Shown here: one piece after another, positions 38,681-61,721 of the stretch
Layout: every line of letters starts with the position of its first letter
Numbering within the stretch: the first letter of the stretch is position 1
From: Acidobacteriota bacterium
Lineage (GTDB): Bacteria; Acidobacteriota; UBA890; WLXD01
Length of the DNA stretch: 64,000 nt
Assembly (NCBI GenBank): GCA_965205505.1
Contig: CBDBHB010000009.1
Location: 1,216,001-1,280,000 of the forward strand
Reading direction: 5' to 3'
The notes under the pieces: generated by a model
What the model was told of the DNA's origin: nothing
Seen by the model: only the letters and a program-made list of their open reading frames with translations
The model's database searches: none
Made by a program: the position numbers and the translations under genes

Positions 38681-39057
38681 ATGAGAGTTCTATTGGCGAC
38701 CGTGTTGACCCTGGCATTCACCCTGGCGCTGTCTACGGTGGCGCCTGCGGCAGCGCTCGGCCAGTCGCCGACTACCGCCGCCGAGGCGATGGCGTACTAC
38801 GAGAGCGACGTCGACGACTGGCTGGATGGCCCGGTGGAGTACCTGATCCTCGACGAGGAGCGCGATGCGTGGAAGGAGCTACGGACCTCCGACCAGCGCG
38901 CCGCCTTCATCACCCGTTTCTGGGAGCGTCGTGACGCCGATCTCCGGCAGCCGGGCAACCCGTTCAAGGACGCATTCTACGAGCGCGTCGCCTACGCCAA
39001 CCGCAGGTACCGGGACACGCCGTTCCGCGGCTGGAGGTCCGACCGTGGCCGCATCGC
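38681..39057 (+). pseudogene. GWxTD-domain protein, 5' part (split by the island)
   Basis: Signal peptide, WLDGPVEYLILDEE, FWERRD, RVAYANRRY, GWRSDRGRI. Confidence 0.9.
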
Positions 39058-39556
39058 TGTGAACGTTAAATCTATGGTGTCAGAATAAACTATTTATTAT
39101 CAGTAAGTTATGAATTTTCCGAAAAGCATGGTGGTCCTTGTGTCACCAGATAGTCACGGTCGACACGGCGTGTCGGGACACCATCGGAGTCATCGAGAAA
39201 GCCCCGTCGGTTTCCAGACAAGGAACGATCACTGACACGAACAGCACCGTGGCTCGAGGGGCGTGCAGTCTGGTAAAGGCTGGATCATGGCACTGCATCG
39301 GCACTGCCGCAGGCGATGGCCATCATCACCATCGCCACCCCTCCTTCGCCCCAGTTCAGTGTGGCGTTTGAATCAGCGGAAGTCGCCGCGCGAGCATCTC
39401 GGCTCTAAGCGTTCCGCAGGCCGCTAGCAAATCCCTGTCCGGGCCGCCTTCGAGCGTCGGGAGTGACGCCTTGCTGCATCGAACCGCTCGCGGCTCTCAC
39501 GGATACTCCTGTCAGACAGCGTGTCGGCCCTATTGCCCCCGGTCCGCGGGTATCGG

Positions 39557-39689
39557 ATCCGCAACACCGAAACAATCCTTTATTTTCAATAACTTACGGC
39601 CTTTCCCATCCGCCACACTGGTATCCTATGTGGCGGATAGGAATCGCTGTAAGTTGTTGATTTCATTGGGTTGTGGCGGTGTGGCGGAT
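39557..39689. other. Palindromic iteron cluster, putative replication origin
   Basis: Imperfect ~130-bp palindrome of ATCCGCCACA/TGTGGCGGAT units at the end of the DUF3631 gene. Confidence 0.65.
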
Positions 39690-41971
39690 ACGACAGCCTC
39701 TTCTCGGGGCAAGTAGGTATTCCAAAGTGCCTGTAGCGCCTCGCGCTTGTAACCTTTCGGAGTACTCCCATCGGGTAGACGTACCGTAGCCGGGCGCACC
39801 ATGAACGGCCTGAGCAGGTTGGCCAGCCCGCGCGTCGACAGCCGCTTGCCGCGCCGCCATTCACTCCAGGGCCGGTGTTGCATGGCGTGCAAGGCCTTCA
39901 GGATGCTCGAGGTGGCCATCGCGTTCGGGTCTCCGACGTCGTTGAACACCTGGTGCAGATCCACCAACAGTGTCTCTGCCGCCGCAGTTTCCTGGTCGCC
40001 GGCATCGACGTTGACATACTCGCACGCGCACCATGCCAGGCCGTTTACGCCGGCCCATTGTCCGTCAGCAACATCGGCAATCGCCAGTAACGCCTCCCAG
40101 GCGTCGCGGGCACGGTCGTGAAGGCTGGCCGGGAACGTGACGTTGTTGCGTTGCGCCAGGATCGCTTTCGCGTTGTCGCCCGTCCACTTGACGATCTGCC
40201 GTTGCAGGCGCTTGATGGCGTCGCAGTCACGGTCGCGCCAAAGAGGCAGGCTCTGTCCCGGTGGCTTCCGCTGCATTCGAACTACCAGCGCACGGTCCAG
40301 CACCGTGTCCGGGAGGTCGTCGATGCCGGCCATCACCTTCGGACACCAGCTGGAAAACCGCCGCGGCTCGTGATCCTCCCCGACGCACCGGAGCACGTAA
40401 GCGCCGCTGCGCCCCTGCGAAGAGTTGATGACGGCGATCAGATCCGGGATGTCTTTCTTAGCGAACGTCCGGTCTGCTTCGTCCAACAGCAGGGTCGGGG
40501 CGCTCTTTTCGATCACCCGGAACAGCACTGCAGGGGTCAAGTTACCCGTCGGCAGAGGTCGATGTACGAACTCCGCGATGACTTCCAGCAACAGCGACTT
40601 GCCGCACCGCTTGGTGGCGCTCGTGAGGTTCAGGAACGGCGAGACGTCCAGTCGATCATGCAGCCTCGTCATCACCACCCACAGCGCCACGGCCTCGGTC
40701 AGCGGCGCCGGCATGTACACATAGCGCGCGATCAGCGCGGCGATCTCGGCAAGCATGGCCGCTCCGTCCACCGGCTCAGGCCAGGGCTCGGGCTCGGGCT
40801 CAGGCCATTGCAGTGCGCGGCCTTGAAGAGCGTTGTCACCGCTCTCTGACGCACGGGCTGCCTTGACGTCAGAATCCAATGTCCCGACGCGCACCCCCAA
40901 GCGTTTCGCCTTCGCCTTGCGCACGCGGTCGTACTCGTACGGTGGCAGCTCGGCCAGGCGCATCACTGCCTGCTCGAACTCATCATCGCCGCCGGGTGCC
41001 CCCGCGTTCGCATCGCGCTCGGGGGCCTCCGCCAGCAGCGCGACAAGATCCATCCCATCGGGTGCTTTGTCCGCCAGATCCCAGCCCTGAGGCAGTCCCT
41101 CCGGGACTTGTACGATCCGCACCGAGGCCACACCGGCCTCTCGAGCCAAGCGCGCCACCGTGTCGGCAAAGCCAGCGCCCGGTTCATCGGCGTCCGGCCA
41201 CACCGTCACCTCGCGGCCCTCGAGCACCGACCAGTCCGTCTTGTGGGGGGATTGCGCCCCATGCATGGGTGTCGTTACCACCATGTCAGGAAACAGCTTG
41301 GAGGCCGCCTCAGCCGCCTTTTCGCCCTCGCACACCAGCACCGGTGTATCTGGGGACGCGAGGATGCCGGACAGGTTCAACAGCGGCCGTGGCGCAGGAA
41401 TCCCTTTCGCCCGCCAGCCGCGCTTGCCGTTGCCGAGATCGCACCAGGTAACAGGCCGGATTTCCTTGTCGAGCGTGCCGTCCGAGCTCTTGGTATCCCA
41501 CCGGCATACATAGCCCATCAACCGGCCTTCGGCGTCGTGGTAGGGCCAGCACTGGGACGGTGCGCCATGCTCTCGGTGGTGGTAGTGCATCTGCGATGCC
41601 TCGCGTGGCACCGGCACGATGGGCACGATGGTGTCGTTGTTGCGGCCGTTGCTCTGGAGTTCGTGGCCGTGCATCTCACCAGCAAGCCCGTTGCCGAGCG
41701 TCTTGGCGAGGTCGAGTGTGGCCTCCGATACGCGACACTTCAGCCTGAACGCGTTGAGGCTTATCGGGTCGCCAAACGTCTCGTCGGTGGCAAAATCAGC
41801 CCCGATGCCGGTGTCGATGTTGATCTTGAGACTGTCGCCGGGAGCCCCTTGCAGGTTGCCGGCCATGAACTCCCTGCCTGCGACCCGGCCGGCGGGAAAC
41901 CAGCGCTTCAACAGCTCCGGGTAGGCAGCTAGCGCTTGGGCGTTGATGGTCTCGTAGTCGATGTGGCCCAT
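39626..41971 (-). CDS. Toprim primase fused to a DUF3631 replication domain
   Basis: CEGEKAA, WPDADEPG, GWDLAD, KRCGKS, LLLDEAD, LHAMQHRPW, TPKGY. Confidence 0.88.
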   Translation of the reverse strand: MGHIDYETINAQALAAYPELLKRWFPAGRVAGREFMAGNLQGAPGDSLKINIDTGIGADFATDETFGDPISLNAFRLKCRVSEATLDLAKTLGNGLAGEMHGHELQSNGRNNDTIVPIVPVPREASQMHYHHREHGAPSQCWPYHDAEGRLMGYVCRWDTKSSDGTLDKEIRPVTWCDLGNGKRGWRAKGIPAPRPLLNLSGILASPDTPVLVCEGEKAAEAASKLFPDMVVTTPMHGAQSPHKTDWSVLEGREVTVWPDADEPGAGFADTVARLAREAGVASVRIVQVPEGLPQGWDLADKAPDGMDLVALLAEAPERDANAGAPGGDDEFEQAVMRLAELPPYEYDRVRKAKAKRLGVRVGTLDSDVKAARASESGDNALQGRALQWPEPEPEPWPEPVDGAAMLAEIAALIARYVYMPAPLTEAVALWVVMTRLHDRLDVSPFLNLTSATKRCGKSLLLEVIAEFVHRPLPTGNLTPAVLFRVIEKSAPTLLLDEADRTFAKKDIPDLIAVINSSQGRSGAYVLRCVGEDHEPRRFSSWCPKVMAGIDDLPDTVLDRALVVRMQRKPPGQSLPLWRDRDCDAIKRLQRQIVKWTGDNAKAILAQRNNVTFPASLHDRARDAWEALLAIADVADGQWAGVNGLAWCACEYVNVDAGDQETAAAETLLVDLHQVFNDVGDPNAMATSSILKALHAMQHRPWSEWRRGKRLSTRGLANLLRPFMVRPATVRLPDGSTPKGYKREALQALWNTYLPREEAVVSATPPQPNEINNLQRFLSAT

Positions 41972-42010
41972 CGGCCCGCTCTCATGGCTCGTGCAGTCTG
42001 ATTATCCGGC

Positions 42011-42316
42011 TCATCGCCCCGCCTGGCTCGTACTCCGGTACGGCTGGCTAAGCTTCCTGGCAACCCACTCATCGAGGCTGTCTCGCGGGTACATGACGTA
42101 ACGACCGAACTTCAGAAACTCCGGTCCGCCACCAACGCATCGCCACTTGCTCAACGTAGCGACTGCGACCGGGACGTTGTGCACTTCGGCCAGGTACGCG
42201 GAGGCTTCCACCGGGTTGAGTCGCCGCTTGTTGAACCGCGACTGAAGGGCGGTGGCGGCGTCCGCAGCGTTGGCCGGAGTCGCGCTGTTGGCTTCGTAGT
42301 GCGTGATGTCAGTCAT
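42011..42316 (-). CDS. AlpA/excisionase-like DNA-binding protein
   Basis: EASAYL...TLSKWRCVGGGPEFLKFGRYVMY...LDEW. Confidence 0.88.
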   Translation of the reverse strand: MTDITHYEANSATPANAADAATALQSRFNKRRLNPVEASAYLAEVHNVPVAVATLSKWRCVGGGPEFLKFGRYVMYPRDSLDEWVARKLSQPYRSTSQAGR

Positions 42317-42335
42317 TTCGATCGTCCTCGTTGCC

Positions 42336-42749
42336 TCAATTCTCAGATTTGGGGGTTGCCGCCGCGCGCAGTGGCGCGTCCGGATCGTAGGAGCCGATCT
42401 TCGCTTGCGACGCCACGAGGAGCTCGAGGTATCCGCGCCGTTGCTCCGCTGTCATCGCCTCCAACACTTTCAGCTGGTCGTTGAGCAGCTTTTCGAGCTC
42501 CTCCAGGAAGCTCGACTTGCTGATCAGCAGGCTGTCCGGACCCATGGTCAGATCCGCCACGACCAAGGCGAAGTCGATCACCACGGAATCGGAGATCTTG
42601 GCTTCGGGGTTGCGGACGAAACCCGGCAACTGGATGTTCCGCATCACCTCTCGGAGGCGTTCAATCAGCTCGGCGCATTGGAGTCGTACCGCAATTCTCT
42701 GGGTCTGTGACGTCAACTGTATCCTCCTCGTTACATAGTATGGTAACAT
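42336..42749 (-). CDS. Hypothetical protein
   Basis: 137-aa ORF co-oriented with the alpA-like gene. Confidence 0.5.
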   Translation of the reverse strand: MLPYYVTRRIQLTSQTQRIAVRLQCAELIERLREVMRNIQLPGFVRNPEAKISDSVVIDFALVVADLTMGPDSLLISKSSFLEELEKLLNDQLKVLEAMTAEQRRGYLELLVASQAKIGSYDPDAPLRAAATPKSEN

Positions 42750-43009
42750 TTGTTACATGTCAGAGTATATACTGATGTCGATCATGATACAAAAAAGATC
42801 GATCCGTCCAGAAAATAGACCAACAAGCTCACTAGTGTACGTCTCCGGGGTCCTGATGCGGCGCTGCCACCTCCACAAGCTATGCAAACGTGCTGGAGCA
42901 GTTGCCCCGCCGTATCCAGCGCTGGTCCACATCGAGGCCTGGTTGGCGAGCCGCCCGACAGCCGTGCCGTACGGCAATCAGCGTTCTTCCTCACCGCCAG
43001 CGGCGTGAC

Positions 43010-43315
43010 ATGGCGAGCGCGGAGCAGATCGTCCGCGCGCTCGCGGGTCGATGCAGCGGACATGGCGGCATGTGCCGTTGCCCGGCGCACAAGGACCGCA
43101 ACGTGAGTCTGAGCGCGACAGAGCGCGACGGGCAGGTGCTGTTGCACTGTCACGCCGGATGCATGCAGGAGGCGGTCCTGGAGGCCCTCACGGCCCGGAG
43201 TCTGGGCATCCGCCGCCACCCCGAGCTCGGCAGGCCAGCGCACACGTGGCCCTACCACGACGCTGAGGATGACCTTGTGGGCTGGATCCAGGTGCGCCGG
43301 GAGCGCGCGTCATGA
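43010..43315 (+). CDS. Primase zinc-binding domain protein
   Basis: CPAHKDRNVSLS...LLHCHAGC; stop overlaps the next start. Confidence 0.75.
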   Translation: MASAEQIVRALAGRCSGHGGMCRCPAHKDRNVSLSATERDGQVLLHCHAGCMQEAVLEALTARSLGIRRHPELGRPAHTWPYHDAEDDLVGWIQVRRERAS

Positions 43316-45084
43316 GCGAGCCACCGATCACGGCCGACCAGATCCCGTGGGGTCAGCAAGTCAACTCGACTCGCGACCGGTCGCTGAAGGCGCGGATCGA
43401 GCGATCGATCAAAACCGGCGACGAGCTGGAACCGACCGACCGGCACCTGGCTGCCTTGCTCGAGCTGATCGACCGGGACAAGGATATCGAGCGCGGCGGC
43501 GGGCGCGACACGAGGCAGCGGCTCGATACTTTGGCCGAAGCCAGGCCGCACCTGGGGGCGCTCGACAACGTTAGTTATTCGGTGATCCATGGAGAGCTGG
43601 CTAAGGCGCTCGGGATCAACCGAACGCAGCTGAAGGACATCAGGGCCACCGAGAGGAGCAGAGTCTCTCGCAACGGCGCCAGCGCAGTTGCCATCAACCT
43701 GAGCGACGACATCGACCTGACGGACGACGGCCTCGCTTTGGAGCTCGGCGACAGATGGCCTGACGCTCGGCACGTGGCGGCCTGGAATCAATGGCTGTTC
43801 TTCAAAGAATCGCGGTGGGTCGTGGACAAATGCCTTGAGCACATGACGCGCGTCCGGGATTTCCTGCGGGAAAAGGTGGAAGCCCTCCAAGAGTGGGCTG
43901 AGAAGAAGGCTGAGAGCCTGGACGGTGAGGCACGCAAGAAGTTCCTGCGCTGGGTCGGAAACAAGCCTGACAAGTTGCGGAGTGCTCAAACCGTCAGGCA
44001 GGTGGTGGGTCTCGCGCGGAGCAACGATGCCCAGGCCGCGCAAGTAGCGCAGTGGGATCGCGATCCCTGGCTGCTGGGCACGCCGGGCGGCACCGTCGAC
44101 CTCCGAACGGGGGAAGTCCGCGATGGGAGCCCGGAGGACTACATAACGAAGGCGACGGCCGTGGTGCCCGCACCCCAGGGAACGCCGACGCCGCCTCGAT
44201 GGGCCGCCTTCCTGGAGCGCATCATGGGCGGCAACGAGGAACAGGTTGGCTACATGCAGCGGTTCGCTGGCTACGCCCTGACAGGGAGCATCCGGGAGCA
44301 CGCCTTTGTCTTCGGCCACGGCACCGGCGCGAATGGGAAGGGCGTGTTCACAGGAACGCTCCAGGGTGTGCTCGGCGACTACGCGCTGACCGTGCCCACG
44401 GAGATGCTCATGGTCACGCGGGGCGAACATCACCCGACGGAGTTGGCCCGGTTGCGTGGCGTCCGCCTGGCGATCGGGTCGGAGACAGAGGTAGGCAGGA
44501 CCTGGGCGGAGGCACGCATCAAGTCCTTGACCGGTGGTGATCGGATCGCGGCGCGCTTCATGCGCCAGGACTTCTTCGAGTTTGACCCGGAGTTCAAGCT
44601 GTTCGTGGTCGGCAACCACACGCCGTCTTTGCGTGGCGTGGACGAAGCGATCCGCCGCCGTCTGCACCTGTTGCCGTTTACCGTCAACATCCCTGCCGCA
44701 GAACAGGACCCGAAGCTGTCGATGAAGCTCAAGGAAGAGTGGCCGGGCATCCTGCGGTGGGCAATCGACGGCTGCCTCCAGTGGCAGCGAAAAGGCCTGA
44801 GTCCGCCGCCATCGGTTCTCGAGGCCACCGACCAGTACTTGATGGCCGAGGACGCCGTTGGCCGGTGGCTCGAAGAGTGCACACGCAAGGGTGCGAATGG
44901 GTTCAGCTCTTCCCGAGACCTCTTTGACAGCTGGAAGCAGTGGGCCGAGGCCAACGGCGAGTACGTGATCTCCAAGAAGCGCCTCGGGCAAGAACTCACC
45001 GCCCGTCGCTACAACTCCCGCCGGCAACCGGGCGGCGGCGCCCGCGGGTACGTCAGTCTAACGCTCCTACAGGGGCTGTCATGA
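43312..45084 (+). CDS. Phage/plasmid P4-family primase-helicase (D5/SF3)
   Basis: GTVDLRTG, GTGANGKG, IKSLTGGD, AIRRRL, GILRWAIDG. Confidence 0.93.
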   Translation: MSEPPITADQIPWGQQVNSTRDRSLKARIERSIKTGDELEPTDRHLAALLELIDRDKDIERGGGRDTRQRLDTLAEARPHLGALDNVSYSVIHGELAKALGINRTQLKDIRATERSRVSRNGASAVAINLSDDIDLTDDGLALELGDRWPDARHVAAWNQWLFFKESRWVVDKCLEHMTRVRDFLREKVEALQEWAEKKAESLDGEARKKFLRWVGNKPDKLRSAQTVRQVVGLARSNDAQAAQVAQWDRDPWLLGTPGGTVDLRTGEVRDGSPEDYITKATAVVPAPQGTPTPPRWAAFLERIMGGNEEQVGYMQRFAGYALTGSIREHAFVFGHGTGANGKGVFTGTLQGVLGDYALTVPTEMLMVTRGEHHPTELARLRGVRLAIGSETEVGRTWAEARIKSLTGGDRIAARFMRQDFFEFDPEFKLFVVGNHTPSLRGVDEAIRRRLHLLPFTVNIPAAEQDPKLSMKLKEEWPGILRWAIDGCLQWQRKGLSPPPSVLEATDQYLMAEDAVGRWLEECTRKGANGFSSSRDLFDSWKQWAEANGEYVISKKRLGQELTARRYNSRRQPGGGARGYVSLTLLQGLS

Positions 45085-45090
45085 TCGCCC

Positions 45091-45965: not shown

Positions 45966-46642
45966 GGCCGTGATCTACTTCGAAGGCCTGCTCGAGGCCA
46001 CCTTCGAGCCCGCAACTACGCACAGGGTCCGTGAGCAGCGGGGCAACCGGGAGATCACGCGCGAGGCGCTGCTGGTCGGCGTTATCGTGTCCAGGTAGAC
46101 GGCCCCACGGGGAGCAGGTCAGGTGCACCTAACAACAGGTGCACGGGGTAGGGGTACGGGTATCCGCAAGGAATCCCGTTCCGATCCGAGGACCACTCTA
46201 AGGGCTTTTCTTCGCTAAACCGCGTGTTAAAAAGATTCCAAAAAGCCTTATGTTAACTTTTGTAGTGTTTCGTAGCGTATGAACATGCTTCATTTGTGAC
46301 CCCTGAGTTGTATATACGTGGTCATTGATCTTGAGGAAAGTAATCACAGCGATGTACCACACAATGTCCGCTTGTTAAATACAATGCCTCGAAGCCCACG
46401 AAGCAGAATCGGAACGCTCCAGCGAAGTTGGGACGACTATTACGAGCCGCAGGTCGGGATCAGTGCCGATAGCGCTCGTTACGTCAGGCATCGCGCCGCA
46501 CGCAGCTTTACCGAATGCCTGGCGCGGATGTTCCCACTCGTCGAGTTCCGGGGTCGCAGTCTTCCTGACCCAAACCCCGAAAACGGTGCCAGGTTGATGT
46601 TTAGGAAATCGGTGTACCGTCGTCCTCCAAGCAGGAGGACAG

Positions 46643-46909
46643 ATGAAGCGGAAGAGGTACACGGACGAGCAGATCGCCTACGCGCTGCGGCAGGCTGAGG
46701 CGGGCACGCCGATCAAGGAGGTGTGTCGCAAGCTGGGCGTCAGCGAGCAGACGTTCTACACGTGGCGCCGCAAGTTCGCCGGGATGGGCGTGGCCGAACT
46801 TCGGGAGCTACGACAACTCCGCCATGAGAACCGGAAGTTGAAGCAGCTGGTGGCAGATCTGAGCTTGGACAAGCACATGCTCCAGGAGGTGCTGTCAAAA
46901 AAGGTGTGA
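46643..46909 (+). CDS. IS3 transposase OrfA
   Basis: [24 protein letters not shown]; A6G slippery motif near 46897. Confidence 0.93.
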
Positions 46910-47760
46910 AGCCGGCGCGCAAGCGCGAGGTGGTGCGGTACCTGCAGGACGGGTTCCGTGTCAGTGAGCGTCGAGCGTGTCGGCTGATCGAGTTGTCGCG
47001 CACCAGCCATCGGTATCAGAGCACAAGGACGGACGACCCCGTGCTGCGGCGTCGTCTTGGCGAGCTCGCCGCGGCGCGTCCGCGGTTCGGGTATCGGAGG
47101 TTGTGCGTGTTGCTACGCCGCGAGGGATGGGTAGTGAACCAGAAGCGCGTGTATCGGATCTATCGAGAGGAGGGGCTGGAGGTACGGACCAAAAAGCGAC
47201 GGCGCAAGCGGGCGAGTCACATACGGCTTGTGCTGCCGCCCGCAGAGCGGCCCAACGAGCGCTGGAGCATGGACTTCGTGACCGATCGGCTCGAGAGTGG
47301 CCGGCCGTTTCGGGTGCTGACGGTGGTCGATCAGTTTAGCCGTGAATGTCCGTTACTTGAGCCGGGCGTGTCGATGACCGGCAAGGCGGTGGCTGGAGCA
47401 CTCGAGCGGCTGTCGTTTGCCGGGCCGTTGCCACGGGTCATCACCGTCGATAATGGCTCAGAATTCTACTCCCAGGCGATGGACTCCTGGGCGTACCGAA
47501 GAGGCGTGCAGTTGGAGTTCATTCGGCCGGGAAAGCCCGTGGAGAATGCGTTCATCGAGAGTTTCAACGGACGGCTTCGCGACGAATGCCTCAACGCCAA
47601 CCTGTTCTTCTCGATCGATGACGCGCGCCGAAAACTGGAGGCTTGGAGGCTTGATTACAATACCCACAGACCACACAGCTCACTGAACGATCGAACTCCT
47701 ACGGAGTTCGCCAGGGGCTGGCAACCGGAGGCTTCGGAACACCGAATCCTAAACCTCTGA
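46906..47760 (+). CDS. IS3 transposase OrfB (DDE)
   Basis: [26 protein letters not shown]. Confidence 0.95.
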
Positions 47761-48096
47761 CTGGTACTGATTTCGGGGTGGGGTCAAGCACCGAGTTACT
47801 GAGATTAGACGTGGTACTAACCGTGGGGTCAGGTCATTCCCATCCAGAACGAGGGCGGAGTGTTGCGGGACTTGGAGCACTTGCTGGATCGCATCCTGAA
47901 TGACCAGGTGATCATTGCGCAGGCACGGCAGGGCGAGCGGCCAAGACAATTGCCATCAAGTTCGCACCCCTGCTTCACGAGGTCGAACCGGCGCGCAGCG
48001 AATGGCGAGCGCAAGTGACCTGCTAGTTTTCTCGTGTGCCCGGCTGGAGCTGGTCATCTCGACCTACTTGCCCAGGGCCGCTTCTGACTCCAGTCA

Positions 48097-49035
48097 CTAC
48101 GATTGCGCCCACAGGGTTGGCTTGAAGGTAGCCACCTGATCGAGCATCCGCTCCTTCTGGCCGGGCGTGAAGCGCTCCGTACAGGCGTCTGGTGAGTAGT
48201 CCATGAAGTTGGTGATCGGGTCCACTCCGAGATCGTCCGGGCAGGTGTCGCGGCCGATTACGCAACGGAATGACGGCCTGGCCTCCCGTGGCGTGTCCGC
48301 AACCCGATCGCCCTTGCCGGTGCAGCCATCTCGGAACGTGTGGGAAAGGCCCAGATAGTGCCCCACCTCGTGCACGAGTAGATCGCCCTCGTCGTAGGGA
48401 CTTGCACCGCCGCCCGGGAAAAATGCGTAATGAACCACCGCCCCGTGCAGGTAATGATCCTCCGGCCTGCTCTGCGGCAACCGTGCATAGCCCCCCTGCC
48501 TTGCTCTGCAGCTGTACACGTTGAGCGTTGTCGGCGGGTCGATGGCGTGCTTCCGCTTGAAGCGTCTTTCGGCGGGGTAGTTTCCGCACTTGCGGGCGAA
48601 CTTGTTGTCGTTGTAGCGAATCAGCTGCCGCAGCGAGAACTTGAATCCCTTGCTCTTGAACGCGTCGTTGAGCACGTCGAGCTGCTGTCGCACCTGCTGA
48701 TCGGTGACATTGAACTGCTTGCCCTTTCTGGCGCGGACGATATGGAAAACAATCGGGATGTTGATCTTGCCCCGGGGCTGAAAGTCACCGCGAAGCCTTC
48801 GGTTCGCCTCGACAAGCTGGTCCACTAACATCGCTTCCGCCTCGTAAACCGGGCGCGTTGCACAGAGAACGCCCGCCTGCCTGCCGCCGTTGCCATCGGC
48901 AAACTCGATATCCGGTGCAAGTTGGGTGCGATCCCAGGCCTCGATAGCTGCAGGCGGACTCTGTGCCCCCGGCGCGCCCGCCATGGCGAGTAGCGCGAAC
49001 GCCACGCCGGCGACGATTCGATACGGCACTTTCAT
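48097..49035 (-). CDS. Secreted zinc metalloprotease, M43 (ulilysin/pappalysin-like)
   Basis: HEVGHYLGLSHTF, DTP, NFMDYS Met-turn, FTPGQ; signal peptide. Confidence 0.92.
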   Translation of the reverse strand: MKVPYRIVAGVAFALLAMAGAPGAQSPPAAIEAWDRTQLAPDIEFADGNGGRQAGVLCATRPVYEAEAMLVDQLVEANRRLRGDFQPRGKINIPIVFHIVRARKGKQFNVTDQQVRQQLDVLNDAFKSKGFKFSLRQLIRYNDNKFARKCGNYPAERRFKRKHAIDPPTTLNVYSCRARQGGYARLPQSRPEDHYLHGAVVHYAFFPGGGASPYDEGDLLVHEVGHYLGLSHTFRDGCTGKGDRVADTPREARPSFRCVIGRDTCPDDLGVDPITNFMDYSPDACTERFTPGQKERMLDQVATFKPTLWAQS

Positions 49036-49129: not shown

Positions 49130-50233
49130 CTACTCTGGGATCTCAAAGCCACTATCCGTGAAGAATGGCACGTCGATCTCCCTTAGACCAAACGCTCGAT
49201 AGATGTACGAAAGAAGCTGGCGAGCCGTGTCATCCGTGATATCGGTCGTTCGCACTCGAACGCGTAGACTCCGGAAGTGTGATCCAGGGTAAGTGCCAAA
49301 ACGTATCGGGGCGTAGAAGCCCATGGTTCCGGGCTGGCCCGGAATGAGTTGGAGCTGGGTTGCGTTCCGAATAACACAGACCAGCTGCAGACCGGTGAGG
49401 CTTCGGGAAGGATCGGGCCCGCCTGTCTGGACCGTCCATCCCACGCGGCGTCCGCCTGGGGACCTCATAGCCTCGCGAAACGCATCTTCATCTACTGCTA
49501 AGAGCCCTCGTCGAGGCTGAACGGCCGTCGCACCTAACCAGAAGAACGGAACGGCACCCACGTCATTGGCAACCCGTCGTTCCAGTTCTCTCGCGAGCAC
49601 CTCGCCGTGATTGATCTCCAGTACGACTGTCTCGAAGCTGTCTGCATCCTGCAGCAGCTGCTCCTCCTCTTCTCGAGCGAGTCGGATCGTTAGCGTCGAC
49701 AGCCGACCCTCGATCCCCTCAAGAGATCGACCTACAAAATCCCCGCGGAACGCTGAGCGGATTTCGTCCCTCGTCATTTCGCGCTTGCCAGCTTCATGCC
49801 GAATCACGAACACCGTAGAGCGCTCAAACGTGACCATGTGAGGAGTATCGGGGCTCTGCGGATATCTGATGGCGACAACATCATGGCCATCGACTCGCCG
49901 GGCCCTAACCTCAAGACCCCCTATACGGGGGCTAATGTGGTCGAGACAAAGATCGCTGACGCTGCGGACAAGCGCGTTGGGGTCAGGAATCGCATCTGCT
50001 TCAAATGTCTGCGCTCGACCCTGACCGTCGTCCCTGAGCCCGACGAAAAGATAGCCTCCACCCCCGTTCGCTAGTGAAGCTACGTCTCTGAGCAGCTCCA
50101 TGCGGTCGGTCGACGAGCTGTGGTTCAACCGGGCCTTGTATTCAAGGTGTTGGCGTTCGCATACGTGATCGCGAACCAGGCGAGCGATCTCGTCGTCTTC
50201 GATGTTGTCGAGCGACCGAGCCTCGAAGACCAA
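49130..50233 (-). CDS. Schlafen/AlbA_2-domain protein
   Basis: ERQHLEYK, DVASLANGGGGYLFVGL. Confidence 0.82.
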   Translation of the reverse strand: MVFEARSLDNIEDDEIARLVRDHVCERQHLEYKARLNHSSSTDRMELLRDVASLANGGGGYLFVGLRDDGQGRAQTFEADAIPDPNALVRSVSDLCLDHISPRIGGLEVRARRVDGHDVVAIRYPQSPDTPHMVTFERSTVFVIRHEAGKREMTRDEIRSAFRGDFVGRSLEGIEGRLSTLTIRLAREEEEQLLQDADSFETVVLEINHGEVLARELERRVANDVGAVPFFWLGATAVQPRRGLLAVDEDAFREAMRSPGGRRVGWTVQTGGPDPSRSLTGLQLVCVIRNATQLQLIPGQPGTMGFYAPIRFGTYPGSHFRSLRVRVRTTDITDDTARQLLSYIYRAFGLREIDVPFFTDSGFEIPE

Positions 50234-50796: not shown

Positions 50797-51415
50797 TCAC
50801 GACTGTCGAGCCTGGAACGCTTTCAGCAGCGGTGTCAGAACCGCTTCCATCCGGATCAGGCGCTCGACCATCCAGGCTCGGATTTCCGTGAGGTCGTCAT
50901 CGGATGATTGGATCGATCCGTGGCGGTAAACGGCGATACGACAGGCTCGTTTACCCTCAAGCTGTTCCCATTCCAGTGGCTCTCCAAGCTCGTCCTCGAG
51001 TTGTTCCCGCCGTGCGTGTAGCCAATCGAACAACGCCTGGTTTTCGCCTTCGTCGCCCCGGTCAATATAGAGTTCAACCCGCACTCGGTCGCCGAGGGTG
51101 AAGGCAGTCGCGTAGTTGATCCCCGAGAATCCAGACGCGAATGAGGACCAATTCTGGGGCTGGGCGCGACGCGCCCCGGTGAAACGGTGTTGTTCACGAA
51201 GCTCATCGATTAGCGGCTGGTAGAACGCTAGATACGCTTCGCCTCTGCGTGTGACGGTACGCTGTGCAGTGCGTTTTCTGCCTCTCTGCCACTCGTTGGG
51301 GAATACGACGAGCTTGAAGTTGTATGCAGGCTTGGAGTCGTCGATCTTGAGAACCTCGACAACGACGCCGAAGAAGCTCGTGTTGTCGTCGGTGCGCTCG
51401 TTGAGCCACTCGACC
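50797..51415 (-). pseudogene. DUF4268-domain protein lacking its N-terminus
   Basis: WLNERTD..FFGV.VE, PNEW, RVELYID, LEWEQLEGKRACRI. Confidence 0.8.
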
Positions 51416-51748
51416 CGACGCCGTCGACGCCGCTGGGGCTGACGGCGCGGGTGGCGCCGTCCTGGGGGCGGCCAGGCCACGAGCGGCGCCGAGACGCTGT
51501 GGGGCCGGGAGACGATGGCGGGGATGGCGCACGGAAGCGTCCCCTCCGGCAGCCGCTTCGTCGGGACGCCGCGAGTCGGCTTCGCGACCTCGGAGTACGG
51601 GCGAGACTACCGGCTGGGCTACAGCCTAGGGATGCTGGGCGGAGCGGGTCTGGACTTCGAGCTGGGCGTCGACGCGCAGCGTCGGGAAACCCCGATTACC
51701 AAGGGCGCCGACCACGGCCTGCTCGGGCGAGCCACGGTGCGCTGGTAA
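51412..51748 (+). pseudogene. C-terminal beta-barrel (autotransporter-like) relic
   Basis: DPTPSTPLGLTARVAPSWG, GTPRVGFATSEYGRDYRLGY, terminal RATVRW; frameshift in a G-run. Confidence 0.65.
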
Positions 51749-53937: not shown

Positions 53938-54307
53938 CGAAGAGAGCTCACCTTGTGCAGCCTTGCCGTAGAGCTATATTGGGCGGGGTGCGCCCGACTT
54001 CATGGTAGCGTCGCTTCGGGTCGTCCCACGCCACTAAACCGGACGAAGGATGGAAGAATGGACGAAGAAACGTGCAGCCTTGAAATTTTGCCGTAGCCTA
54101 TTCGCGACTAGCAACCTGATCGGAACCGACTTCGACGATGTTCGGGTGATGGAAATCGTGAAGCGAGACTTCCCGCAACAACCCGGCGGAGACAGCGTGC
54201 ACGTCACGTTCTCCGTTAGCTGGCACGCAATCGGGAAGGCTGGTGAGGACGCGCACGGCGCCTTGGAGGTGCTTCTCCCGAGTGAATGAAACCGCCTGGA
54301 ACTCTCG

Positions 54308-54738
54308 TGACCTGACCCGCTGAAACAGATCCAGAAGTAATCACATGATCTGGGTCGAGAAAGGGAGGTCAGAGTGGTGAGTAAGAGGCACAGCGCCGAG
54401 CAGATCGTGCGCAAGCTCCGAGAGGCAAGGGGCCGGTGGTCGATAGCCCAGCGAGCTGTGCGGTCGAACTCGGTTGTACTGCTGCCGCCACCTCTCGATC
54501 AGAACCCGTGCCTGCTTGAGCGTGTAGAAGATCTCCCGGTCCAGCAGCTCGTCGCGGAGCTTGCCGTTGAAGCTCTCCACGTAACCGTTGTCCTTAAGGC
54601 GAGCCCGGCTCCATCAACAGCCTCCCACTAAGGCGCTGTTGTTGAACCCCGCTCCGCTACGCTCCGCCGGCTTCAACAACCCCTTGTCGGCACCGTGTTA
54701 CTGAGATAAGACGTGGTACTAACCGCGGGGTCAGGTCA
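54308..54738. mobile_element. Internally deleted and inverted IS-A relative (mini-IS3)
   Basis: Both IS-A-like ends; orfA start on +; orfB 3' segment ([12 protein letters not shown]...RPHSSLGY) on -. Confidence 0.88.
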
Positions 54739-55127
54739 GTCGGTTGTCGATCCTGCAACCGCGTAGAGGACACTGTGCTTTACGTGCCTTCGCTCGCAGT
54801 CTGAAGGACGGACTGATAGGGAGTACGCAATGAGCGAGACTTGGCGGTTCTCCCCCTCTGGTCTCGTATACGGTCGTGCCTAGATCGCTCCGATTGGATC
54901 GGACGCCGGAGGAACTCGGTCGAGAGTTCCTGGCGATGCAGACACGCATCGACCTGTCGCGTCTGTGCCGCCAGGGCCGCTGGCGACGGTTGCCCTGAAT
55001 CAAGTCGGCCCAATACGTCAATGTCCGCTGTCGGGACCGAAGTCGTCGCTCAGCATGGAGCCACCCCAGTGCGGAGTTTCATCTCGCATCCACCGTCATA
55101 GTCCGTTGCGATGCAATGCCTCTGGAC

Positions 55128-55853
55128 TCATGATATTGCAACCTTCGGTTCGGGCATTTGATTCCAGATGCGGTTGTCCAGCATCCGGCCTGTCTTCTTC
55201 TTGAATACGCCGCCCCATTGTTTAAAGAAGAACGGCACATTGCTTTGCAGGCAGTTGTCGCGGATGTCCCGTACCCAGTCCGCTTCCATTGGCCGCGCGC
55301 CCGGCCCGGATTCGCCGCCGACGATGACCCAATCGATCTCTTGAAGCGGTATTTCCGCCAACGGTCCGAGCAAGGGTTCGAGAGACAAGAACTTCGTATG
55401 GGCTCCGGTTGCCTTAAGTTGATCTAATCTTCGCATCCACCGTTCGGACTCGATGCTGGTGCCGAGCCATATGTTCGACGTCCAGCACAGTCTCTCGTCC
55501 AGCGCTACGACGCGGCCCGGCCGCTTCGTTAGCACCTGAAAGGTATGCTGCGATGCGCGATTCATGACTTCAAAAACGGCCTCGATGAACCGCGATGATA
55601 CCGACTCATGGAAAAGATCGGACATGGAATTCACGAATACAAGGCGCGGTCTGCACCATTTCAACGGCTCGTCCAGAGTGGACTCGTGAACGACTACCGA
55701 GAATCCCCGCCTATATTTGTCCAACCCCATAGCCCGTAGTCTCTTAGCCATGCGCTCCGCATAGCAGAACTGGCAGCCGTGGCTGATTTTGGTGCAGCCC
55801 GTTACCGGGTTCCAGGTAGCCTCGGTCCATTCGATTGCGGAGCGTGTAGACAT
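55128..55853 (-). CDS. DUF5131 / phage Gp37-Gp68 family protein
   Basis: [52 protein letters not shown]. Confidence 0.93.
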
Positions 55854-55855
55854 CG

Positions 55856-56716
55856 CTACAGACGTTCTAAGATATGCGTGGCAATGTTTGTGGCGACCTG
55901 CTTGCCCCTTGGATTGCCGACGCAGAACAGAAATTCAAACAATGGGGACTTCTTGGAGTTCTTTAAGGTTCTGGATTGCGTCAGCAATCTGTCTCCGAAC
56001 AACCTACCGAGCTTGTCCTTGTAGACTTCGAGAAGCCCACCAACACCGGGATCCCTCTCCTGATCTGTATCCCCAAACAGGGTTGGTTGAGGGCTGTTCC
56101 GGTAGAGTTCCCGCCAGCTCTCATCGCGAAAAACCAGTTCCAACCGCTTGACCCATTGGACTGAAATATCGTCCGGTTGCTTCGATCTTGGAAGCATCCG
56201 CGCGATCGCCGACACGGGGAATAGAATCCATGTGTCCAGTGCATTGAAGGCCGCTATTGTTTGGATAGTGGACCACTCGACGTCAGTTGCAAAGGGGTCC
56301 AAGAAAAGGACGCCACGCCATCGGCACCAATCTTCGTTGAGATTGGACAGAAATTTGTTTGCATCGGAGTTCTCTATTGAGATATTTCTTCCAGGATTAG
56401 TAGCACGCACCTCCTCTAGTCGCGCACATCGGCGAGAATCTTCCTCAACGAAGATCAGTCTGTCGAAAGGCTTATCCTTAATGCTGACAGCTCGCTCAAC
56501 GGAGCCACTCACGAAGTGGCGGATCTCGTTATCGTCCTCATCGCTGGGCACTACGATCCGGCCCGTGCCCGCAAATGCGTCTATGTACAAAAGCTTGAAC
56601 GGCTGACTCTTCAACGCCGTCGTGTACGCGTCGAGATAACTCTCCAATATGCCAAGCTTCTCGAGTGTCCATGCTCCACCGAACAGCGTGGATGAGTTCT
56701 GTTCTAGGTCTCTCAT
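55856..56716 (-). CDS. tcmP: Three-Cys-motif partner protein (SAM-methyltransferase-like)
   Basis: [26 protein letters not shown]; adjacent to DUF5131. Confidence 0.9.
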
Positions 56717-57200: not shown

Positions 57201-57203
57201 GGT

Positions 57204-57550
57204 CTACCTGCCGCGTCGATCACCCGCCGCGTGAGTACTTCGGCAGAGGCGATTTGCCGGTGGCGGATGTCCTCGGCGCCGAGCGCCCGGTAGATCCCTT
57301 GCCCGTGGATCCGGCACACGCGGCCGATGCCGGTGATGCCGGGCGGGTTCTCTTCGGCGGCCACGCCTTGGGCGATGAGGGCATGGACCGCGCGGCGCAC
57401 CTTCTCGATGTGGCAACCCAGAACCTCGTCCACTGCGCCCGGGTGAAGACACCGCCGTGTAGACAGGCCAGGGCGATCCATTCGGCGCGGCGTCCCGTCC
57501 AGCCGAAGGCCTCCAGCGCCTTTCTCGCGTCCCTTCAGATGGGCGATCAT
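57204..57550 (-). pseudogene. Frameshifted fragment of a winged-helix mobile-element protein
   Basis: MIAHLKGREK / ALEAFGWTGRRAEWIAL.CLHGGVFTRAQ / IYRALGAEDIRHR in shifting frames. Confidence 0.5.
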
Positions 57551-57740
57551 CGCTGCTGCGTCTCTCTGTGGGGCTGCCCGGGGGCCAGAACATCGGAGGC
57601 GAACCGGATAGCCGGTTCAGGAACCGTTACGGTGGCATCCGAACTACATTGAGGAGTCCGCTTTCTGCGGTTTCACAACGGGCAATGAGGCGATGCCCCA
57701 GGGTCTCCAGCTGAGTGCCAGGTGTGGACTAGGCTCCGCC

Positions 57741-57832
57741 GGTCGGCTTCGCCCGGAATCGGTGGACGGCATACGTCGGAATCACTGGACAGCATCGATC
57801 GGAATCGGTGGACAGCTTGGCCGGAATACGCA
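57741..57832. mobile_element. Solo IS21-family end
   Basis: CGGAAT repeats at 57754, 57777, 57800 and 57822 (23/23/22-bp period) ending in GGAATACGCA. Confidence 0.8.
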
Positions 57833-57928
57833 CCGGGAGACTGGTGAGGTCACAGCGGCCGTGGCGCATCGCGTGGACAAGCGGACCCTTGGAGAGTCAG
57901 TTCGAAAGCAGCGCGGTCCGGGCCGATG

Positions 57929-59510
57929 TCAGACGATGACCTCAAGGGCATAGCGCCGATCCAGGTACGGGTGCGCAAACTGGTTGCGGTAGCTGCGCAG
58001 GCAACCGTAGCAGCTGGAGTCGCAGCCGCAGTTTCCTTGGACTCGCTGCCTCGCGTTGGCGAGTACCTCGTCGAACACAATCCCCTGCTCCATTTGGGCC
58101 ACCAGCCCGGCGCCGCCGGGCACGTTGTCGTACAGCACGATGGCGGACTCGCCGGGATTGCCTCCGCCAGCGATCGTCGCGTTCAGGTCGGTGTCCGGAA
58201 CATCCAGGGTCTCCGCCGCGCCGAGCAGCATCGCATACGCGACGGAATAAGCGGCCCACTCGCCGTGCAATCCCGGAAACTGCAGACGCACGACATCGGT
58301 CACCAGTTCGTGGCCCAGCGAGAACCGTCCCAGCGTCCCGCTGCATGGAGAGTTCGACGGTGAATTGTGCGTCGCCTTGGGCGAGGTCATGTGCGCACCG
58401 CAAGAACGGCCGATAAGGAAACCCTCCCGCTTCCTGCCCTCGCTAAGGATGACAAGGGTCCCGGGTTGAGCCTTTGTAACCTGGACGCCGGAGAGGATCC
58501 TCGTTTCGGGTAGGTCATCGTCGTCAAAGCCTCGAAAAAACGGTCGCGTCGTATACAGGCGACGCGCCCGCCCGTGCGGCTCCTTCGGTTGCTTGAAGAG
58601 CGGCGTTACGAACCCGAACTCCGGTATCAGGTATTTTCGTGCATTGGGCGGTGCGGTCGGATCGCCCTCGTTCCATTGCTTGAAACTGCGCGTGTCGTTG
58701 TATCGATAATGCCGAACGGGCCATTCCTTACCGGAGACCTTCTTCACGCCGCAGGATTCCCACTCCAGTTTCCTGGCCACCACCTTGCCGCCGGGGGCAT
58801 ATTCGGCGATGGCCTGCGACAGATCGTGCTGGAGCGTAACGCCCATACGGTTGCCGTCCCGGGGACGAGTATCGAGTTCGACGACATCCACGGGGAACCC
58901 GTACTTCGGGATGACCGCCTTGCGGGACAAGAAATTAAGCGTCTGCTCGCGGGCAATGGTCTTCATGCGGTCTTCCACTCTGTCCGTGCCCTTGCGTCGG
59001 TCGAACAGATCCTGCCGGTTACGCTCCATGTCGACATAGTCCGAGCACACTTCAATCTCCACGGCAGCAAGCCGACTGTCGGACCCCGCAACCTGCTCGG
59101 TCCATGCGTCCGCTGCGAGTCCGGTGCTCTTGTGCAGGAGATCGGGAACGATCTCGCGCAGTGACGCTGCCAATGTGCTGTTGTTCTCGCAGAACGCCCT
59201 CAGGTCCAGCGTTGCGCGTGGGCTATGCCAGTCCCCAACCAAGTCCTGTACACGGTTGAATCGCATGGCGTTGCTGCCGGATCTGAAGAAGGCGGACAGG
59301 GCAGTGGCCACCATGTGCCGCAAGACGATCTTCTGGTTCGTCAACCGCAGGCGCGGCGGGTGCACCGCGCCACGGATTAGCCGATGTTCCGGATCTTCGT
59401 AGTGATACAGGTCATGGGGATTTCGGCGGCAGTACGTCAGAGCCAGGCCTGGCGTGGCCGCTCGCCCCGCCCGCCCCACGCGTTGCGTGTAGTTGAAGGG
59501 TTCCGCGCCC
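57929..59510 (-). pseudogene. C-terminal half of an SF2 helicase with a DUF1998 (MZB) domain
   Basis: Motif VI NYTQRVGRAGR, LYDNVPGGAG, CGCDSSCYGCL; ATPase motifs absent. Confidence 0.88.
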
Positions 59511-59870
59511 GTGAATGGCCGACAGCGACCGGTAGCGGCGCCTCTCGAACGTGAAGCCCCATCGAGCACTTCGACCACCAGGTCGCGGCCCCGATAAGCG
59601 CGGCGAAGCAGCATCCCCGGCTGCGGAGCACGCCATCGCGATTCAGGGATAGGCGCACGTGCAGCCGCCACACAGCGGCCCAGGATCGCCGCGGGTACCG
59701 CATACCAAATCTCTGATGCTGGGTGCGGCGGCGGCGGCTCTCAGCGGCTCTAATACGCTTGCGCCCTAGTCTGCGGGCCTTCCGCACGACCCCGGTAGCG
59801 CAACTGGGCGACGGCACCGCGGACGGAGATCGGTGATCACGCGGAGCATGGACCTCGAAATCGCGGCGCA
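59510..59870 (-). pseudogene. DUF2924 protein fragment
   Basis: PGMLLRRAYRGRDLVVEVL then GFTFERRRYRSLSAI across a frameshift. Confidence 0.75.
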
Positions 59871-59934
59871 CGAAGCCGTCGAAGATACCTCAACAACTCC
59901 CCCCTGAGGAGATCGGTCCCCCTACCGTGCCGCG

Positions 59935-61260
59935 CTAGGAAGTCGCCTGTAGCGAGCCGGCGATGGGCTCGGTAGTTGCCGACAGTCGTTCCGTCCCTGT
60001 ATGTAGAACCGTTGCCTGCTCTCCTGTCATCAGTTCGTGGATGCGCGCCGCCACCCTGTCGGCGGCCGCGATCAGCACGCTATCAAGGTGGTGGATGTAG
60101 CGGCTCGTTACCGAACTGGCCGCATGGCCCACAAGGGCGGCGATGGTGTGCTCGGTGAAGCCCAGATCGCCCGCCATGCTGGCGTAGGAGTGACGCAGAG
60201 TGTGGAAGGTAACACCCTCTAGTGCAGCGCCTTGGACGATCTTGCGCCAAAGGGGACGCATCCCATCTACCGTGACCGGTCCCTTGCCGCGAGCAGCTGG
60301 AAACAGATAGGCAACCGGTTCATCCGGCTCTACAGTGCCTAGCACATCCAACGCCGCCCGCCCGATCGGACGAACCGACGCACCCGTCTTGGAGTCTTCC
60401 AGACGCCAGCACCGCCCCTCGAAGTCCACCTCGGACCATTTCAGGTTCGTGACTTCGCCAACACGGCATCCGGTCAGCGCCAGTAACCGCATGACCATGA
60501 GGGCTCGACCGTTGCTGCCTTCATCCTCGGCACCCTGCAAGGCCGCGCCGAGAGCCCTGTACTCCTCGGCGTTCAAGCGCCGCGTGCGACGATTGTACGC
60601 GGGAGTTTTGACCCCATGCACCGGGTTGAACGGGATCACCCCTTCGGACACCGCAAAGGACAGGATGCTGCCCAGCAGGCCGACGCAACGAGTGGCGGCG
60701 CCCATACCCCCCGTGACCACGGCCTTGCCGCGCGCTTTGGCCGTTTTCTCCACCACCGCCGTCTTGCCCGCGGCCACGTCGCGAATGAAGCGGTTCACGT
60801 CCGCTTGCCTCAACTCGTGAACCCGCTTGGTTCCCAAGAGCGGCTTGATATGGCGTTGGATCCGGCCCTGATCGTTGTACAGCGTCGATGCCTTCTTGGG
60901 CCTGCCCCGCTTGCCAACGATCAGGCCTCCTTCGGCGGCCTGCATGTATTTGTCGCACAACTCACCGACGGTGAGGGTGTTACGGCGTGTGGCACGCTCG
61001 GCGGCCGGATCGCCGCCCTTGAGTGCCCCGGCGAACGCCACTACGGCGAGCTTGCGGGCTTCATCGGCCGTGAGCTTGCCGTGTGGCCCGAGCGCCATGC
61101 GTCTGCGCACACCGTCACGGTTGCGGTAGTCGGCATAGTAGGTGCGCTTACCTGACGGGAACACGCGCAGGCCGAAACCCGACAGCTCCCCGCACCAGAT
61201 GAAGTAGGGGCGTTGTCTGGGGACGGCCGCATCGACGATTTTCTTGGTCAGTCTAGCCAT
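59935..61260 (-). CDS. Tyrosine recombinase/integrase with an N-terminal arm-binding domain
   Basis: GFGLRVFPSG, LTGCRVGE, KTG, HTLRH, LVGH, VTSRY; all catalytic residues present. Confidence 0.95.
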   Translation of the reverse strand: MARLTKKIVDAAVPRQRPYFIWCGELSGFGLRVFPSGKRTYYADYRNRDGVRRRMALGPHGKLTADEARKLAVVAFAGALKGGDPAAERATRRNTLTVGELCDKYMQAAEGGLIVGKRGRPKKASTLYNDQGRIQRHIKPLLGTKRVHELRQADVNRFIRDVAAGKTAVVEKTAKARGKAVVTGGMGAATRCVGLLGSILSFAVSEGVIPFNPVHGVKTPAYNRRTRRLNAEEYRALGAALQGAEDEGSNGRALMVMRLLALTGCRVGEVTNLKWSEVDFEGRCWRLEDSKTGASVRPIGRAALDVLGTVEPDEPVAYLFPAARGKGPVTVDGMRPLWRKIVQGAALEGVTFHTLRHSYASMAGDLGFTEHTIAALVGHAASSVTSRYIHHLDSVLIAAADRVAARIHELMTGEQATVLHTGTERLSATTEPIAGSLQATS

Positions 61261-61444
61261 CCTGATCCTCGTGTTGAAGTCACCAGATAGTCACCAAAAA
61301 AGTGGAAAGGTGGCGACTGTCGGTGAGTTGATCGAAAGATCAGGATAGGTCATATATTCAATACCTACAATTGTTTAGAAGAATAAAGCTACTTTTTGAA
61401 GACTTCCGATATTGCCGGAAAATACCCCATCGTCACCGCATCGC

Positions 61445-61721
61445 GGTGACGCTCGGGTTGCCGGATAGCCAGCGGCCCATCCGCTCTGGCACTGGGCTCG
61501 TCTGGACATACCTCACGTTCGGTGCTCACGCCGAGGGCAAGGGCTTCAGTAGCGTTACCGGCCGAGTGGAGATTGCCTTCGTGTCGCGGGGTACCGCGCG
61601 CAACAACTACACGATCTCCGGCGCGCAGGGCACCGGGATCTACCCTGCGTACGTGCTCCGTGCGCTCGAATTCAGCCGCCGTGCCGCGGTCGGTGAGGCA
61701 GCCAACCGCCCCGTCTCCTAG
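61445..61721 (+). pseudogene. GWxTD-domain protein, displaced 3' part
   Basis: (RI)AVTLGLPD...VWTY continues the 38681 frame exactly. Confidence 0.88.

Follow-up and report, generated by a model that had tools for sequence, protein, structure and literature searches.

A tyrosine-integrase island interrupts one GWxTD gene of an Acidobacteriota genome at a 9-bp core identical to its target

The window analysed here is a 64,000-nucleotide stretch of an Acidobacteriota bacterium (contig CBDBHB010000009.1 of assembly GCA_965205505.1, positions 1,216,001 to 1,280,000 of the forward strand), in which an integrative island of 22.4 kb lies inside a gene of the GWxTD family. The genome carrying the window (G000) is assembled in 9 contigs and comprises 5.98 Mb. 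The split gene opens with an ATG at 38681 on the plus strand and its frame follows host DNA up to ...PFRGWRSDRGRIA (GWRSDRGRIA), where it leaves the host sequence at the left attachment site (attL) and continues for 10 island codons, VNVKSMVSE*, to a stop at 39086-39088. The 5' part (38681-39057, +) comprises codons 1-125 plus 2 nt, has a signal-peptide-like N-terminus and ends in the attL core; the 3' part (61445-61721, +) comprises 1 nt plus codons 127-217 and the stop codon. Joined in silico (38681..39057 + 61445..61721), the two parts gave 654 nt and 217 codons in frame with one stop, the terminal one, and neither half has stops or frameshifts. The N-terminal half (N-half) matches the Pfam family GWxTD_dom PF20094 (E=2e-6, 28.1 bits against a cut-off of 26.9) and TIGR04514 (E=2.5e-18), the C-terminal half (C-half) alone gave zero Pfam or NCBIfam matches, and the insertion cuts the GWxTD profile at position 105 of 172. 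The island supplies no substitute 3' end, and therefore this GWxTD copy is knocked out by the insertion. Precise excision would restore a 217-amino-acid protein, as judged from the in-silico join and from comparison with intact orthologues. The initial annotation of this DNA had read the break at GWRSDRGRIA, the joining of two stop-free halves into an in-frame 654-nt open reading frame and the inactivation of the gene in the same way, and our analysis agrees with it on all three points.

The 9-bp core CCGCATCGC stands at both ends of the island: at attL (39049-39057, +), where it coincides with the breakpoints of two empty sites (loci L002 and L003), and at the right attachment site, attR (61436-61444, +), where it lies inside a perfect palindrome (CGTCACCGC-ATC-GCGGTGACG). 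The island body between them (39058-61435) measures 22,378 bp, or 22,387 bp with one core. Each core copy is followed by T or G and then GTGA, which makes 13 of 14 positions identical. The number of copies of the 9-mer is within chance (4 on the plus strand of the window, 242 on both strands of the 5.98-Mb genome) and the 9-mer alone would be insufficient; the boundaries are proven because empty sites fix them. When 41 related genomes were searched with the N-half, same-genus matches were found in G004 (94% identical) and G001 (75% identical). At the G004 locus (L002) the match to the left flank of the window extends to 1499 and that to the right flank begins at 1498, and at the G001 locus (L003) the flanks meet at 1877|1878. 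Synteny extends over more than 1 kb on each side, with nucleotide identities of 87-94% for G004 and 75-85% for G001. Both genomes encode an uninterrupted 217-amino-acid protein, with a junction reading GWRSDRGRIAVTLGLPD and the breakpoint exactly at the core; the island is absent from these syntenic loci, and the core is present there in single copy, whereas two copies flank the island in G000. The core at 39049 and 61436 with its t/g-gtga continuation, as initially noticed, is thus confirmed by the empty sites of G004 and G001. The first island base (39058) is also the first base of likeness to a sister element in G004, which is described below.

A transposase target-site duplication was considered for the 9-bp repeat and rejected: the ends carry no terminal inverted repeats (checked by eye), the only DDE genes belong to an internal IS3 copy and to fragments of insertion sequences (ISs), and the end geometry is that of tRNA-targeting homologues of the island integrase. 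As a separate observation, a 28-nt sequence occurs twice in the left flank in inverted orientation (37741-37768 and 37992-38019), and both copies match L002 1941-1968 at 100%; depth spikes at L002 1922-2034 in four sequencing runs suggest a short multi-copy repeat.

The integrase gene (59935-61260, -) starts 176 nt from the attR core and encodes a full-length P4-type tyrosine integrase of 441 amino acids. Its translation matches Arm-DNA-bind_3 (E=1e-13), Phage_integrase (positions 2-170 of 172, E=6e-22) and phrog_1 (E=6e-65). Tyrosine recombinases are defined by the motif series R..K..HxxR..H..Y, and all of these catalytic motifs were recognised by eye in the translation. The gene is intact, as had been stated initially. 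A 15-mer with two GTCAC half-sites 11 nt apart, TCACCAGATAGTCAC, has exactly two copies in the window, which are co-oriented: the first (39143-39157, +) lies 85 nt inside the left end and the second (61280-61294, +) 141 nt inside the right end. In a shuffle control allowing up to 3 mismatches, two matches were reached in 19 of 100 shuffles, so the pair is not significant by itself. Its weight as an arm motif comes from its conserved position in the G004 sister element, where the identical TCACCAGATAGTCAC is found at equal offsets in surroundings whose bases have diverged. We therefore regard the pair as putative arm-type integrase binding sites. For the AlpA/Xis-like gene that had been reported in the island, a candidate was found at 42011-42316 (-), which encodes a helix-turn-helix protein of 101 amino acids; the assignment as an excisionase is less secure, with sub-threshold matches to HTH_17 (E=0.0015) and to the excisionase family phrog_66 (E=0.0046).

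A close homologue of the integrase was found in only two of 401 genomes of the phylum, G000 itself and G004 (26 genomes of the order were also searched), and in a collection of species representatives the sole close match was the same G004 locus. G004 is also the genome whose GWxTD site is empty. The integrase end of this sister element (L022, G004:C15:205143-207080) matches window positions 59506-61446 with 97% nucleotide identity over 1.9 kb, and its left end (L019, G004:C15:1703740-1704385) matches 39058-39700 at 90%, beginning with island base 1. Both ends read into the element in the same direction. The host flanks of the sister map to C9:1047504-1044414 and C9:1043570-1044422 in G000, where they are adjacent with a 9-bp overlap; since they are contiguous there, G000 has the empty site of the G004 element. 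This site (C9:1044414-1044422) falls within an aminotransferase-like gene, in its 3' end and 14 codons from the last. The repeat flanking the sister, CCTCGTCGA, agrees with CCGCATCGC in 6 of the 9 positions, and the arms (...CGTCA, core, TGTGAACGTT...) are alike in both elements. Left-end DNA of the island was present in only two of 11 genomes of the family, again G000 and G004. A metagenome scan with a 28-mer from the left end gave 0 matches, and in the scan of metagenome contigs for the integrase none of the 77 loci exceeded 51% identity, thus revealing no further sister elements.

More distant homologues were assembled from two collections into 134 integrase loci (57 + 77, some contigs being present in both). 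We examined the 69 loci with near full-length matches of at least 33% identity, setting aside L022 and weaker or partial matches, and 67 of these were evaluable, having 200 nt or more of sequence ahead of the integrase gene. Members of this clade are 33-61% identical to the island integrase. At 62 of the 67 loci we found, on the opposite strand and 156-292 nt upstream of the integrase start, a T-arm with acceptor stem and CCA, which together form a displaced tRNA 3' half; most of these halves belong to Arg(CCG) or Gly(GCC) tRNAs, with the junction at the anticodon arm. Four loci lack such a half, although one of them, L056, shows an imperfect half by eye, and one further locus has a doubtful match on the other strand. 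None of the integrases at the 67 evaluable loci adjoins a GWxTD gene. The idea that close integrase homologues also sit in GWxTD genes is therefore not borne out: the G004 sister occupies an aminotransferase-like gene and the clade sits mostly at tRNA halves. Integrase homologues without an upstream tRNA half were seen at L027 (49%), L058 (44%) and L066 (33%), and these may be further non-tRNA or secondary-site cases in the clade.

We also looked at the target side. The GWxTD C-half gave 39 matches in the 41 genomes, of which 37 adjoin an N-half, one is the split gene described here and one is an orphan fragment; only one GWxTD copy is thus occupied in these genomes. The orphan (G004:C15:1359447-1359593, -) covers only residues 43-91 in a frame of 54 codons, and the N-half is absent beside it. 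In G000 the family is represented by 13 N-half matches. One intact paralogue (C7:249756, -), with an N-half 83% identical to that of the split gene, carries the exact 15-mer CCGCATCGCGGTGAC in unoccupied form, and this is the only other genomic occurrence of the 15-mer of the bacterial attachment site (attB). Among 13 genes of the genus-level subfamily, counted by eye, the exact core plus GGTGAC is found in 4, an 8/9 core in 7 and a 7/9 core in 2. The core with GGTGAC lies in the DNA for DRGRIAVTLG, conserved residues that directly follow the GWxSD signature, and the site is conserved across paralogues because it encodes them. This would make it a reasonable multi-copy attB for an element with a matching overlap, yet a single copy in the 41 genomes is occupied. 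In a narrow sense the GWxTD site is the cognate attB of this element. The proposal that a GWxTD gene is an undescribed attB holds to the extent that the site is exact and that such an attB is not on record in the literature searched, in which we found no mention of GWxTD; it does not hold in the sense of a dedicated or conserved target.

Taken together, these data are consistent with conservative site-specific recombination, in which the P4-type tyrosine integrase would have inserted the island into one gene of a secreted GWxTD family. The crossover would lie within the 9-bp block common to element and target, probably with an overlap of 7 bp, and the choice of site was probably opportunistic, resting on a short stretch that by chance matches the overlap of the element. 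Were the exchange tolerant of heterology, attL and attR would be expected to differ once the DNA had replicated. In both sister elements attL equals attR over all 9 bp and both equal the target, and therefore the core in the attachment site of each element (attP) must have matched its target before integration. Tyrosine integrases are described as tending to enforce identity of attP and attB over a strand-exchange segment of about 7 bp (PMC10111431, in extract). Although the two sister elements are 90-97% identical, their cores disagree at 3 of the 9 positions, and hence the core has changed in one of the lineages. We infer that the integrase made the insertion across a 7-bp overlap and that the element should still be able to excise. 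The textbook way for a core to change like this is by passage through a secondary site, and a change of integration specificity via secondary attachment sites was reportedly described by Rutkai et al. in 2006.

To see the locus in other strains, we used seven public runs that contain at least half of the sampled attL-region words, all as assembled contigs, and aligned the contigs of four runs to the empty-site locus L002. A 3.7-kb contig of run X15 and a 460-nt contig of run X20 both match the right flank to the last core base (1507) and then continue with 43 and 102 unlike letters, respectively, which corresponds to the occupied form. Among the records listed, a 16-kb contig of run X18, which shares its variant letters with X15, extends from the right flank 89 nt beyond the junction and represents the empty form. 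Run X15 may derive from the source sample. The word shares of X1, X18, X19 and X20 (0.62-0.68) do not separate occupied from empty. The site is thus polymorphic among near-identical strains, owing to a recent insertion or an excision, the data leaving the direction undecided, and the insertion is either recent or still reversible at the population level. The same contigs bear on a possible artefact, in which metagenome assembly or binning would have placed the island in the gene by a misjoin. An assembly in 9 contigs that is rich in ISs could produce such a misjoin, but both junctions lie on a shared 9-bp block beside an integrase in canonical arm geometry, the Logan contigs of X15 and X20 independently leave the empty-site reference at the last core base, and the ends of the sister element agree in sequence with those of the island, which makes an artefact extremely improbable.

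The two halves of the gene were compared with the G004 orthologue for signs of constraint. Amino acid identity is 94% for the N-half and 89% for the C-half, and the nucleotide sequences differ at 15 of 377 and 19 of 277 positions, respectively. The ratio of non-synonymous to synonymous rates (dN/dS) is 0.27 for the N-half (7 non-synonymous, 8 synonymous) and 0.86 for the C-half (12 non-synonymous, 5 synonymous), counts that are too small to weigh. When the replacements were polarised with G001 and a paralogue, the G000 lineage accounted for 1 in the N-half and for 6 in the C-half, and the G004 lineage for 3 and 2, respectively. Stop-free halves are expected of a young insertion under any model. 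A slight excess of lineage-specific replacements in the C-half would also suit an immobilised remnant, that is an island which can no longer excise from a gene that is dead and too young to have decayed. The weak excisionase candidate, the decayed and IS-invaded cargo, the rearranged DruE-like gene and the clearly dead G004 sister, with its broken integrase and separated ends, point in the same direction. However, the integrase of the G000 island is full-length with all catalytic motifs, its cores are identical at 9 of 9 positions and both arm motifs are exact, and the empty form is present in a near-identical strain (X18), though this could just as well be an ancestral, never-occupied state. 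We therefore consider an immobilised remnant unlikely.

In our view the best explanation, to which we give a probability of about 80%, is an ordinary knock-out of a redundant GWxTD paralogue by a recently mobile integrative island. The initial annotation had raised the possibility of a regulated gene-integrity switch, in which the island would be an active intervening element that is kept in the GWxTD gene and whose conditional excision turns an envelope protein on. In a related version that we add here, the motif DNA of the paralogues would serve this element lineage as a multi-copy attB, much as tRNA genes do for its relatives, with the attP overlap re-tuned from one site to the next. Excision switches have precedents in skin in sigK and in the Listeria comK prophage. 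Excision would here give an exact 217-amino-acid protein like that of the orthologues, integrase, arm motifs and the identical cores show no damage, neither half contains a stop, occupied and empty forms occur in near-identical strains of different runs, and comparable cases are described in PMC7397523 and PMC6597384. On the other hand, occupancy is not conserved, with 1 of the 39 C-half matches in the 41 genomes being split, the orthologous site is empty in both G004 and G001, the sister element sits in another gene and the clade sits at tRNAs. With 13 GWxTD matches in the genome and the site of a close paralogue unoccupied, a switch in one copy would be of little obvious value. Moreover, cargo and backbone are eroding (a DruE remnant and an IS3 insertion), and the stop-free halves are what a recent event would leave (15/377 and 19/277 nt differences). 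A conserved, regulated gene switch is thus not supported, and we regard either version of it as very unlikely.

Several points weigh against the knock-out by a recently mobile island as well. The site matches the overlap perfectly and recurs in paralogues, and an element variant specialised on GWxTD genes is possible. The excisionase assignment of 42011-42316 is weak, both matches being sub-threshold. A single sister is available, and it is degraded: its integrase has an internal stop and gives a split match, and 1.5 Mb of one contig separate its two ends, an arrangement that one large inversion between IS copies, or a misassembly there, would produce. With only this degraded element for comparison, either of the two sites may be the primary one. 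The attP and attB junctions are not in the assembly, and the population data consist of contigs only. The excess of replacements in the C-half, together with its higher dN/dS, would be in keeping with a period as a dead fragment, a faint hint of relaxed constraint on the promoterless half that is far from significance.

We class the element as a tyrosine-integrase integrative island whose backbone is of the satellite type. Like P4-type integrase islands and satellites of the phage-inducible chromosomal island (PICI) type, it has an integrase with an Arm-DNA-binding domain, an att block of at least 7 bp, a primase-helicase and defence cargo. As in the helper-embedded PICIs (HE-PICIs) portrayed in extracts of PMC10111431, whose integrases form another clade, two co-oriented doubled motifs stand asymmetrically around the attP centre; their distances from the core centre are about 97 and 153 bp here, and in the HE-PICIs the motifs lie at 81 and 132 bp. 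Unlike in PICI and P4 satellites, no capsid-redirecting or packaging genes were found. The host belongs to the Acidobacteriota, whereas all other homologues found at 33-61% identity come from records with Alphaproteobacteria or Pseudomonadota in the title or from metagenome contigs that have no title. With islands in tRNA genes (Islander-type, as outlined in extracts of PMC4383910) the element shares a homologous integrase whose gene starts about 170-200 nt from the junction, and tandem repeats upstream of int; it differs from them in its coding-gene target, in a 9-bp block instead of a tRNA half and in that the target is not regenerated. The comparison with lambda-type changes of specificity is apt in that the sisters share their arms (...CGTCA, core, TGTGAACG...), with cores 3 of 9 positions apart, each equal to its own target.

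The element also resembles the Listeria comK prophage (active lysogeny, PMC7397523) and the Sa3int prophages in hlb (PMC6597384), in which, going by extracts of these papers, insertion inactivates a coding gene and excision restores it. In those systems the same gene is occupied in many strains, and excision has been measured and responds to conditions (the same extracts). Here there is one occupancy, the sister is elsewhere, and no virion genes were found among the island open reading frames scanned. Inactivation and restoration are seen in silico, and the recurrent occupancy that marks a switch is not. On present evidence the locus offers no new regulatory principle. What it provides, for a phylum that has received little study, is an integrative island cleanly mapped together with both att sites, its arm motifs and references for the empty site. 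The sister elements of G000 and G004, which are near-identical but have differing, target-matched cores in a clade otherwise found at tRNA genes, should be useful for studying how an integrase changes its target.

The remaining island genes make up the backbone and the cargo. With the integrase and the excisionase-like candidate, two primase genes give the island a backbone like that of phage satellites and mobilizable islands, and the ISs are later insertions. On the left side lies a primase-like gene with Toprim and DUF3631 domains (39626-41971, -; 781 amino acids; DUF3631 E=1.4e-34, a weak Toprim match, and the N-terminal part of NF005477 at E=3e-41). Further inward is a D5_N/P4-family primase-helicase gene (43312-45084, +; 590 amino acids; D5_N E=8e-22, TIGR01613 primase_Cterm E=5.5e-89). 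The cargo includes a peptidase M43-like gene (48097-49035, -; 312 amino acids; Peptidase_M43 E=1.3e-15), a gene with a Schlafen/AlbA_2 domain (49130-50233, -; 367 amino acids; SLFN_AlbA_2 E=1.3e-13) and an intact TcmP-like and DUF5131 pair (55128-56716, -), with the TcmP-like gene at 55856-56716 and the DUF5131 gene at 55128-55853. This pair corresponds to the PADLOC candidate PDC-M41 (PDC-M41A E=5e-74, PDC-M41B E=3e-115, TIGR04474 E=6e-45, DUF5131 E=5e-98) and, by these profile matches, is a candidate defence pair. A DUF4268/PDC-S11-like gene (50797-51480, -; DUF4268 E=1e-27; PDC-S11 positions 113-314 of 318) is without about 110 N-terminal profile positions and probably decayed. The DruE-like (Druantia) helicase gene at 57929-59671 (-) is a remnant of the C-terminal third (DruE1 positions 1115-1672 of 1776, E=9e-61; MrfA Zn-binding domain MZB, E=9e-13). 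A complete IS3-family element lies at 46565-47836 (+), with orfA at 46643-46909, orfB at 46906-47760 and matches to HTH_Tnp_1, rve and rve_3, and IS fragments at 54304-54744 include an rve_3 remnant (54341-54580, -) and have multi-copy matches in the genome. No tRNA gene is present in the window. The earlier statement that most island cargo is decayed applies to the DruE remnant, the short DUF4268 gene and the IS fragments, but both primase genes, the TcmP and DUF5131 genes and those for the M43 peptidase and the Schlafen/AlbA_2 protein retain their full length. Decay has reached part of the cargo, and the genes of the mobility backbone look intact.

Some of these genes have relatives elsewhere in G000. 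The DruE-like gene is split over two loci, with the C-terminal part in the island and an N-terminal part of 1179 amino acids at L164:4456-7995 (C8:459455-462994); the two pieces overlap by 651 bp at 100% identity (window 58855-59505 = C8:462731-462081), and the piece in the window begins exactly where the likeness to the G004 sister stops (59506). This arrangement suggests recombination between related islands. A small open reading frame upstream of the P4-type primase (42929-43488) has a weak match to a primase N-terminal family, phrog_6088. Copies of it are found at C8:547526-548088 (96%) and, at 82-84%, in four more places, and G000 therefore contains several related island backbones.

Repeated elements are frequent in both genomes. 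The 1.27-kb IS3-family element has about 20 copies in G000 at more than 99.5% identity, and the G004 region that we inspected is crowded with several IS types that are 98-99.8% identical to G000 copies, which points to an ongoing IS expansion common to the genus. Finally, a repeat of about 280 bp at G004:C15:187776-188053, which may be of the miniature inverted-repeat transposable element type, has more than 30 copies across the G000 contigs at 89-96% identity.

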